IMG/VR virus record: IMGVR_UViG_638341196_000006
Strand: one strand, 5' to 3'
Source of the DNA: a virus
Lineage: Duplodnaviria > Heunggongvirae > Uroviricota > Caudoviricetes
Length of the DNA stretch: 19,782 bases
The notes beneath the pieces are model-generated. The model was not told the DNA's origin, ran no database searches, and saw only the letters and a program-made list of their open reading frames with translations. The position numbers and the translations under genes are program-made. Each line of letters starts with the position of its first letter. Position 1 is the stretch's first letter. Positions 14,402 through 15,305 of this stretch are shown here, one piece after another.

Positions 14402-14431
14402 TTGACAACACCGCATTAACGGGGCTATATT
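14402..14431 (+). promoter_or_regulatory. sigma-70 promoter of antirepressor module B (TTGACA 14402-14407, 18-bp spacer ending GGGGC, TATATT 14426-14431)
   Basis: Read directly; paralogous to the module A promoter. Confidence 0.55.
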
Positions 14432-14524
14432 CCGCTTCATGGTGCTCAAAACACCTTTGCGATAGCGGAAACCGCCCCGTCAGTTATGCGGATTTTTTTA
14501 TGTCTACGACATTGAGAATTCAAT

Positions 14525-14604
14525 GGTCGGGCGTGCGGCTAATAAAACACCCGCAAGGGAAATATGCCCGCCGTCTATCGCCGGTTTTGAGCGCCCGACC
14601 ACCC
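14525..14604 (+). ncRNA. candidate c4/IsrK-like antisense RNA, module B: ~80 nt closed by a 9-bp stem, carrying antisense segments CTATCGC (14575-14581) and GTTTTGAGC (14584-14592)
   Basis: Stem ggtcgggcg (14525-14533) pairs cgcccgacc (14592-14600); conserved tgcgg/ccgca hairpin with a different loop; antisense segments pair with sites upstream (14443-14451, 14459-14465) and downstream (14606-14612, 14631-14638, the latter overlapping SD agga 14636-14639). Confidence 0.45.
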
Positions 14605-14648
14605 TCTCAAAAGGGGTGAATTCAAAATATGCGATAGGACATAAAACC

Positions 14649-15305
14649 ATGGCTACTCAAATTTCTGTTGAATCCCTTTCCCCAATTACCTATAACCACA
14701 TCCCCGTCATCACTACCGAACTACTGGCACGACTTTACGGCACTGAGACCAACAACATTAAAGTGAACTATACGCGCAATGCCGGGCGTTTTGTTTGTGG
14801 TAAGCACTACTTTAAACTGGAGGGTGGTGAATTGCGGGAATTTAAGAACAAGGTTACTCACAGTAACTTAGTTGCACCGCGAGCAAAGCACCTCATCCTC
14901 TGGACAGAACGAGGCGCAGCCCGCCACGCAAAAATGCTCGAAACCGATCAGGCGTGGGAAGTGTTCGAAAAACTGGAAGACTGCTATTTCAGCCCGGGCA
15001 AAGCGGAACAGCACCCGCAGATCCAGCAGCAATTCACAGACGAAGAAATCATCCTCCTTTGCTATATGCAGGTACAGATGGAGAATGCGCTGGACATCTG
15101 CAAACGTCTGTACCCGATATTGAAGGAACTGAACTCATCATACACGAGCAAGCTGTATAACATCGCGTTTGAAACTTTTTACACGGTGACGAAAAACAGA
15201 GATGTACTGCTAAGGGAGGCGACACGACTTGACCAAGCAAGCGCCCTTTTCGAACGGGCAAAACCAATGCTGAAAAGCCTTCGGGCGAGACAATTCGAAT
15301 TTTAA
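14649..15305 (+). CDS. ORF6N-family antirepressor-like protein (218 aa)
   Basis: Start ATG 14649 with SD agga 14636-14639 (the track's 14523 start is rejected); ORF6N-like core shared with the paralogue at 13550. Confidence 0.7.
   Translation: MATQISVESLSPITYNHIPVITTELLARLYGTETNNIKVNYTRNAGRFVCGKHYFKLEGGELREFKNKVTHSNLVAPRAKHLILWTERGAARHAKMLETDQAWEVFEKLEDCYFSPGKAEQHPQIQQQFTDEEIILLCYMQVQMENALDICKRLYPILKELNSSYTSKLYNIAFETFYTVTKNRDVLLREATRLDQASALFERAKPMLKSLRARQFEF

Follow-up and report, generated by a model that had tools for sequence, protein, structure and literature searches.

A probable c4-type antisense control unit of the sRNA-Xcc1 class upstream of an antirepressor-type gene in a decayed lambdoid prophage

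Organization of module B

The subject of this analysis is module B, a segment at positions 14402-14651 of the IMG/VR virus record IMGVR_UViG_638341196_000006 (Caudoviricetes), whose 19,782 nucleotides (nt) were analyzed as a whole and are called the window here. Module B is made up of a promoter, a leader, a structured RNA of ~79 nt and then an antirepressor-type gene, all on the + strand. It is discussed here as a candidate for c4-type control, a textbook form of RNA-based phage immunity that has so far been associated with a single RNA family, C4, whose leaders are isrK. In phages P1 and P7 the c4 RNA pairs with downstream sites and in this way blocks translation (PMC12197685).

Module B begins with a sigma-70-type promoter at 14402..14431 (TTGACA-18-TATATT, with 11 of the 12 consensus positions) that is conserved in homologues. 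The leader that follows contains two short sites, named here according to the P1 nomenclature: a1, GCTCAAAAC at 14444..14452, which folding places in the loop of a GGUG/CACC hairpin, and b1, GCGATAG at 14459..14465. Next come the leader hairpins and a terminator-like element (14465..14499), the parts of which are GCGG (14465-68), CCGC (14472-75), a loop with CCCGTCAG (14476-83), a second GCGG (14488-91) and a run of seven T (14493-99). The RNA itself, of the sRNA-Xcc1 class and with ACC as its 3' tail, is placed at 14525..14603, its ends being set by analogy with the annotated 77-nt C4 RNA of P1. It is closed by a stem in which GGTCGGGCG (14525-14533) pairs with CGCCCGACC (14592-14600), and it contains hairpin 1 (14537-68, with CCC-GCAA-GGG at 14550-59) and hairpin 2 (stem 14570-73/14582-85). 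The 8-nt loop of hairpin 2 holds the first putative antisense segment, b' (CUAUCGC, 14575..14581). The second, a' (GUUUUGAGC, or GTTTTGAGC as DNA, at 14584..14592), lies in the 3' junction and is unpaired both in the Rfam structure and in that of R1, a covariance model of our own that is described below. Directly after the RNA, in the loop of a small hairpin, is a2 (CTCAAAA, 14606..14612), followed by b2 (14631..14639), in which GCGATAG at 14631-37 overlaps the ribosome-binding site AGGA (14636-39) and stands 11 nt before the start codon ATG at 14649-14651.

CTATCGC at 14575-14581 is matched base for base by its complement GCGATAG twice, at 14459-14465 and at 14631-14637, and the junction segment is complementary to the a1 site and to CTCAAAA at 14606-14612. 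Counting both strands, GCGATAG occurs five times in the window, where ~1.7 occurrences are expected, and three of the five fall inside the 180-nt module B in the required orientations. An earlier note on this DNA had described the promoter, the closing stem and the pairing of CTATCGC with both GCGATAG sites, the second of them over the ribosome-binding site, and each of these can be read directly in the sequence as it claimed; both complementarities of the junction segment hold as well, with the upstream partner, which the note had put at 14443-14451, lying one base further on.

The RNA lies between the predicted promoter and the open reading frame (ORF) that starts at ATG 14649, on the same strand, and the minimum-energy fold of the whole leader preserves the RNA's own fold. 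No + strand terminator was called in 14500-14700, which leaves the RNA without an intrinsic terminator of its own, and it runs straight into the target sites and the ORF with no T run. The sequence thus offers two exposed segments, two downstream sites with the last over the ribosome-binding site, and a second pair of sites in the leader. As a stand-alone gene for a trans-acting small RNA (sRNA) the segment does not qualify, the nearest promoter being 94 nt upstream, past the leader.

The gene that would be regulated by module B occupies 14649..15305 and encodes an antirepressor-type protein of 218 amino acids (aa) with Pfam matches to ORF6N (3.1e-20) and to P22_AR_C, the P22 antirepressor C-terminal domain (1e-9). 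It is annotated as an antirepressor in Shiga toxin (Stx) and Shigella phages, and the close relatives of the module B region, 274 phage records, are mostly Stx-converting and Shigella phages. Both module B and its gene have remained intact, and copies that are 100% identical are found in two IMG/VR contigs.

The listing of ORFs shows 14523..15305 as one open frame, and the RNA could accordingly be taken for protein-coding sequence, with an ATG at 14523 opening a 260-codon frame that runs through the RNA into the ORF6N gene. We give this reading practically no chance. In the E. coli O111 homologue the frame is closed by a TAG within the target site and the RefSeq start is the downstream ATG, and on these two grounds the coding extension was rejected. 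The lengths of the homologous RNAs are not multiples of three, the presence of G-U and compensatory pairs speaks for selection acting on the RNA structure, and a ribosome-binding site precedes 14649, with the ORF6N domain beginning at residue 12 counted from that ATG.

RNA class and conserved structure

Rfam identifies the RNA of module B as sRNA-Xcc1 (RF02221) over 14525-14608, with 78.1 bits against a gathering score of 53 and a full-length match to model positions 1-87, while the leader of module B gives no Rfam match even at E <= 10. The RNA folds better than its shuffled versions (z = -2.84). Model R1, which was built from 73 sequences, scores the RNA at 83.1 bits and has this as its sole match in the window (14522-14607). 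A search with a pattern derived from the core of hairpin 1 collected ~110 distinct Xcc1-type RNAs from viral contigs and, in addition, 67 model-confirmed copies from the genomes of Xanthomonas, Lysobacter, Rhodanobacter, Haemophilus, Neisseria, Pasteurella, Photorhabdus, Arsenophonus, Azospirillum, Pseudovibrio and others.

The MAFFT alignment of the 73 RNAs left the closing stem out of register, RNAalifold missed the stem, and 56% of the cells were paired; this alignment was replaced by alignment to the covariance model together with a helix search in each sequence and its shuffles. In neither alignment was the closing stem fully in register, and it was therefore tested separately, sequence by sequence. 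The R1 alignment of 104 distinct RNAs has 83.7% of its cells paired, compared with 64.7% in shuffles, and changes on both sides are seen in 20 of its 21 pairs. Its covariation score of 0.50 compares with 0.166 in shuffles and with no more than 0.16 when the registers are slid by one to three columns. The three-way junction of RF02221, formed by the closing stem and two hairpins, is supported by this covariation. The closing helix is present in each of 94 distinct RNAs; 86 of these have 9-11 base pairs (bp) and the remainder 7, 8 or 12, and shuffled 3' regions average 6.8 bp. Among the 94 RNAs there are 49 different 5' strands of the closing stem, so that the homologues change in a compensatory and not in a non-compensatory manner, as expected under the selection on RNA structure that the earlier note had proposed from the two modules of the window.

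In the family structure of hairpin 1, GGC(UA) at 14537-41 pairs with (UA)..GCC at 14563-68, and CCC and GGG enclose a GCAA tetraloop. The inner hairpin that had been suggested at this place, tgcgg (14534-38) with ccgca (14551-55), is complementary in the window and was rejected on the evidence of the homologues: the E. coli O111 copy CCAGCAATGG disrupts tgcgg/ccgca and has a compensated CCC-GCAA-GGG hairpin. The three nucleotides that follow the closing stem are CCC, ACC, CCA or CCT in 99 of the 109 copies collected. Read together with the last base of the stem, they form an R-C-C-(A/C) end that resembles the end of the P1 C4 RNA (...GCCACC) and the 3' ends of tRNAs.

Co-variation of the RNA and its target sites

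A three-way change of the hairpin-2 loop and its two flanking sites is already visible among the four variants nearest to the window, the window included. The loop of the window, CUAUCGC, is flanked by GCGATAG on both sides; that of E. coli O111, ACUACUUG, by CAAGTAG on both sides; that of locus L012, UCAUAUGU, by CACATATG; and that of locus L030, CUUUA, by CTAAAG, again twice in each case. For the viral set we accepted as a target match only a perfect Watson-Crick word within flanks of 150 nt upstream and 70 nt downstream. A complement of at least 6 nt is then present in both flanks for 50 of 78 distinct hairpin-2 loops, against 2.65% of non-cognate loop-flank pairs, and one of at least 7 nt for 34 of 78, against 0.5%. 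The junction segment has a complement in both flanks for 53% of its distinct versions, against 3.6% of non-cognate combinations.

The b1 site covaries with the loop in homologues. The target of the loop on the downstream side stops 7-12 nt (mode 10) short of the start codon. A T run (>= 5) separates the upstream targets from the RNA in 93 of 105 homologue leaders, and the loop target is upstream of that run in 78 of 79. The leader hairpin that precedes the T run is represented by 48 distinct stem arms. Its loop (14476-14483 in the window; ~107 homologue leaders) retains the motif CCCG(T/A)(C/T)AG while the stem varies; a check by eye for a pairing partner of CCCG(U/A)(C/U)AG revealed no consistent one.

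These results bear on how the family has been understood so far. The RNA might be an Hfq-type sRNA that acts in trans on unlinked host genes, in which case the complementarity to the flanks would be incidental or secondary. The Rfam assignment to RF02221 favors such a role, and papers treat the family in this way in Xanthomonas and Xylella, with predicted host or plant targets, a treatment that is compatible with local control too. Joint change of the loop and junction segments and of the flanking sites is, however, unexpected for an RNA whose selected targets are elsewhere; the RNA is not followed by a terminator of its own, and genes of antirepressor type are linked to it in 98 loci. We regard a role of this kind as highly improbable and continue with module B as a local, c4-type unit.

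The linked genes were compared by the first ORF after the RNA in the 98 loci, where the domains found are P22_AR_C (27), Bro-N (21), P22_AR_N (20), ORF6N (18), KilA-N (13), AntA (9) and Rha (7). Phage proteins of the antirepressor type are built from this set of domains in shuffled combinations. In E. coli O111 and phage Nil2 the order is isrK-C4-Rha (antA), followed directly by promoter-sRNA-Xcc1-ORF6N (antB). Across 80 loci that encode ORF6N relatives, the same upstream position is taken either by an isrK and C4 pair or by an Xcc1-type RNA, and the two RNA classes therefore behave as interchangeable cassettes in front of homologous genes.

Comparison with known systems

The GenBank record of P1 annotates the c4 promoter, a1, b1, the 77-nt C4 RNA, a2, b2 and icd. 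In the P1 sequence the hairpin-2 loop UCACUAAC pairs with b1 and b2, and the 3' junction CUGUCAA with a1 and a2. Module B follows this layout part by part, in unchanged order and at closely similar distances: the two upstream sites are 7 nt apart in P1 and 6 nt in module B, the RNA measures 77 nt and ~79 nt, and the last site precedes the start codon by 10 nt (icd ATG) and 11 nt. The first downstream site begins 4 nt after the RNA in P1; in module B it lies 3 nt after the inferred end at 14603 and 6 nt after the closing stem. After the second upstream site the P1 leader reads GCGG-ACAA-CCGC-loop-GCGG-U run and that of module B GCGG-AAA-CCGC-loop-GCGG-A-U7. In both, the loop pairs with the target at the ribosome-binding site and the junction with the target adjacent to the RNA, and in both the downstream product is of antirepressor type. 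The short variable segments would set the specificity of module B as they do in P1 and P7, where they are the basis of heteroimmunity (PMC12197685).

There are also differences from P1. Hairpin 1 of the module B class is long, with an internal loop and the invariant core AAUACAAYACCCGNAAGGGRAAU, and the closing stem has 9-11 bp instead of 17 bp. Module B has no small ORF like icd, and its last target is on the ribosome-binding site of the antirepressor gene itself. P1 is a plasmid-type prophage, whereas module B is part of a lambdoid one. The earlier note had described module B as a second c4-like module; the layout does match that of the P1 c4 locus, while the RNA belongs to RF02221. Hartmann et al. 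are said to have found in 1995 that P1 C4 is processed by RNase P.

Two further phage systems have a terminated leader RNA that carries upstream targets: Gifsy-1 of Salmonella (IsrK and the processed STnc1160) and phage N15 (isrK and C4). Here too a processed RNA of ~80 nt is followed by antirepressor-type genes in a lambdoid or linear-plasmid prophage. Their RNAs are Rfam C4 and their leaders isrK, which is the type of module A, the other RNA module of the window, and not that of module B. Phage N15 has isrK and C4 and no RF02221, so that no experimental precedent for the RF02221 class was found among the characterized phage RNAs. As a side observation, in N15 (L204 28082-28489, minus strand) the C4 match at 28301-28388 overlaps the coding sequence of gene 32, annotated as 'transcriptional repressor' (28082-28372), the start of which may be an annotation artefact; the isrK match at 28414-28489 includes the annotated terminator.

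The CI RNA of phage P4 is likewise a processed antisense RNA with complementary sites on both sides of itself (seqA, seqC), and pairing with these causes premature termination of transcription (PMC4825925, PMC3632133). The terminator-like element directly after the upstream sites of module B is a point of likeness. P4 controls replication genes by termination, in contrast to module B, where the last target covers the ribosome-binding site and so points to a translational block in the manner of P1.

With sRNA-Xcc1 of Xanthomonas campestris, module B shares its RF02221 membership and a similar size. Northern blots of the prototype show a discrete RNA of 88 nt (PMC2996969). A position upstream of an ORF6N gene has already been noted in APSE phages, and one upstream of symE has been published for Xanthomonas integron cassettes. 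The searchable papers that mention sRNA-Xcc1 make no link to c4; the original 2011 paper in RNA Biology may comment on it.

Proposed mechanism

The observations comprise the anatomy of module B, the covariation within the RNA structure, the parallel change of RNA and targets and the context of antirepressor-type genes, and with these in hand we consider it very probable that module B is a c4-type antisense control unit, a repressor of a second structural class. The promoter at 14402-14431 would transcribe the leader, the ~79-nt RNA and the antirepressor-type gene together. The RNA would be excised from the read-through transcript, probably by RNase P if the analogy with P1 holds, and would act in trans. 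Its loop and junction segments would pair with the two downstream sites, and pairing at the second, on the ribosome-binding site, would block translation of the antirepressor in the way that P1 c4 blocks icd/ant. The same segments could pair with the copies of the sites in the leader beside the terminator-like hairpin, where early termination, as with the P4 CI RNA, is possible.

A step that deserves discussion is the action in trans. An element that works in cis alone would be an attenuator or translational switch whose segments pair within one transcript and which releases no free trans-acting RNA. All the partners are indeed within ~200 nt on one predicted transcript, with a terminator-like element between the upstream sites and the RNA, and complementarity by itself cannot separate pairing in cis from pairing in trans. 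Each segment, however, could pair either upstream or downstream of the RNA, as would suit a diffusible regulator; the closing stem and the R-C-C-(A/C) tail are as in the excised P1 C4 RNA, sRNA-Xcc1 is known as a discrete 88-nt RNA, and in the minimum-energy fold of the full leader the RNA keeps its own fold. We think a cis-only element unlikely and prefer the excised c4-type repressor.

Several points weigh against this reading of module B as a c4-type unit, the basis of which is comparative throughout. The Rfam C4 model (RF01695, gathering score 45) has no match in module B when 3 kb are searched at a threshold as loose as E <= 10, and membership of module B in Rfam C4 was dropped for this reason. 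R1, the Xcc1-type model, in turn fails to detect module A, and when the C4 and Xcc1-type RNA classes are aligned with each other the ends alone align; because the models do not cross-detect, common descent of the two classes is not established. The homologues were gathered with a pattern that fixes the core of hairpin 1 and many of them are related, so that the homologue counts overstate the number of independent events. The terminator-like hairpin in the leader of module B is weak, with a 4-bp stem, and a simple terminator scan did not call it. The Xanthomonadaceae copies that we examined, including the type of locus from which sRNA-Xcc1 was first described, have no downstream targets, and a block at the ribosome-binding site is for that reason not universal in the family. 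Finally, sRNA-Xcc1 has been published as a trans-acting RNA controlled by HrpG/HrpX and carried on integron cassettes.

For the family as a whole, we lean slightly toward the view that sRNA-Xcc1 (RF02221) is a second class of c4-type RNAs that are excised, adjacent to their targets and programmable by short variable segments. The results suggest that the family has been misread in annotation as a trans-acting, virulence-linked sRNA. What is known here is the RF02221 family and the mechanism class of c4-type control; what is new is the different RNA scaffold and the reinterpretation of an existing family. If the reading is correct, sRNA-Xcc1 in Stx phages, Shigella prophages, APSE, Haemophilus, Neisseria, Xylella and Xanthomonas gains a concrete and testable function, and the host and plant targets predicted for it would need to be revisited. 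Prophages with tandem modules would hold several antirepressor-type genes, each under a private RNA lock, with a bearing on cross-induction between co-resident prophages, Shiga-toxin phages included. The at least 78 distinct loops would amount to a large natural repertoire of specificities orthogonal to one another, with up to three modules arrayed in one prophage and C4 modules among them, and the matched pairs of RNA and target would be a ready set of orthogonal translational repressors for synthetic biology.

Variation within the sRNA-Xcc1 family

In the Xanthomonadaceae copies in question (L209, L213, L217, L224, L225, L227, L235, L236, L258, L260 and L268) the loop has a target of 8 nt and the junction one of 7-8 nt, both upstream of the RNA together with a strong terminator. 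These copies support a role for the leader sites alone, and the fact that the leader targets are what remains suggests pure leader attenuation of the downstream genes. The terminator in this group has the form ACCCACC...GGTGGGTTTTTT. Behind the RNA, several of these loci have a hairpin, then a ribosome-binding site and an ORF of 88-89 aa, and in L217, L235 and L260, where the downstream sequence was read, an overlapping Arg-rich ORF comes next.

A second group consists of the GC-rich viral contigs L183, L184, L187, L192 and L196, in which a promoter-like TTGACG-N17-TATTCT is located after the RNA and, at four of the five loci, is followed by an ORF of 69-83 aa that has no Pfam match. No clear pair of targets is seen on either side of the RNA in these contigs. 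This subgroup may be arranged differently and is possibly truly trans-acting.

Modules that recognize different sequences through their loops and junctions frequently occur in tandem. Several loci carry more than one Xcc1-type RNA: there are three in L148 and two each in L085, L091, L097, L100, L125, L127, L132, L185 and L264. In the tandem copies that were compared (L085, L091, L127 and L264) the loop and junction sequences differ, and the two RNAs of L091 are 243 nt apart. Locus L030 combines the two classes, with isrK-C4, an Xcc1-type RNA, an ORF6N gene and a second Xcc1-type RNA within 686-2376.

Module A and the two specificities

The window contains two RNA modules, A and B, both on the + strand. 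Module A (11924..12204) has its promoter at 11924-52 and an isrK leader at 11959-12035 (Rfam, 61.6 bits) that holds the targets TTAGCAC (11984-90) and ACTCGAG (12001-07). Its C4 RNA at 12060-12147 (Rfam C4, 78.6 bits) presents a loop segment CUCGAGUG (12103-10) and a junction segment GUGCUAA (12118-24), and the downstream targets are TTAGCAC (12152-58) and CACTTGAG (12185-92), the latter over the ribosome-binding site of a gene with a Rha domain that starts at ATG 12202. Module A is an ordinary example of the known c4-type control. The promoters of both modules share the 12-mer CGGGGCTATATT across the -10 (14420-14431 and 11941-11952), where 0.07 matches are expected, and this motif recurs in numerous modules of the C4 and Xcc1 types; it may represent an operator common to them or an extension of the promoter. 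Control of the module promoters by LexA was ruled out, as a LexA box is absent near either of them.

The recognition sequences of module B differ from those of module A, and cross-reaction is therefore not expected. Duplex energies were predicted for all combinations of an RNA, represented by its exposed part, with a target region. The RNA of module A gave -35.1 kcal/mol with its own leader, -29.9 with its own downstream region and -12.7 to -15.1 with the other module; that of module B gave -30.3, -20.6 and -14.9 to -18.3 kcal/mol, respectively. According to these predictions the two modules are orthogonal in silico. The claim of a distinct antisense specificity made in the earlier note agrees with this preference of each RNA for its own targets (-20.6 to -35.1 vs -12.7 to -18.3 kcal/mol), and the difference it saw between the closing stems of A and B, GAG/CTC vs CGG/CCG, is real.

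Its further proposal of two independently controlled antirepressors holds as far as the presence of two modules, and is limited by an insertion sequence, IS1 (12783-13550), that has cut the Rha gene of module A and the start of a second ORF6N gene. The Rha ORF (12202-12786) is truncated at its 3' end and encodes 194 aa, compared with 256 aa in E. coli O111. On its other side IS1 abuts the fourth codon of the second ORF6N gene (ORF6N#1, 13551-14323), whose first codons are lost. This gene is a paralogue of the module B gene (76-81% DNA identity) and the third antirepressor-type gene of the window. With IS1 flanked by a truncated Rha gene and by ORF6N#1, an IS1-linked deletion has removed the region between them. 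The lost region possibly included a third RNA module. An E. coli relative has no RNA module at the counterpart position upstream of ORF6N#1, while an IMG/VR relative has one before each gene.

Prophage setting

The window is a decayed lambdoid prophage. A LexA-like repressor gene is found at 9540-10298 and the integrase gene at 15586-16659; a search for tRNA and tmRNA genes found none. Between the repressor gene and module A there is a HicA/HicB toxin-antitoxin pair on the minus strand (10705-11300). The recombination region at 271-8328 is interrupted by insertion sequences, with two IS30-like transposase genes (271-1584 and 4772-5923) and IS3-family ORFs at 1552-2391, 4447-4815 and 6008-6826, and the recombination genes that survive are a RecT fragment (3777-4256) and a YqaJ exonuclease gene (3091-3780). 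Just past the integrase is a gene for an IpaH-type E3 ligase (17222-18985) with LRR_TTSS and NEL E3 ligase domains, and this effector gene beside the integrase points to a Shigella-type prophage with a type III effector as cargo.

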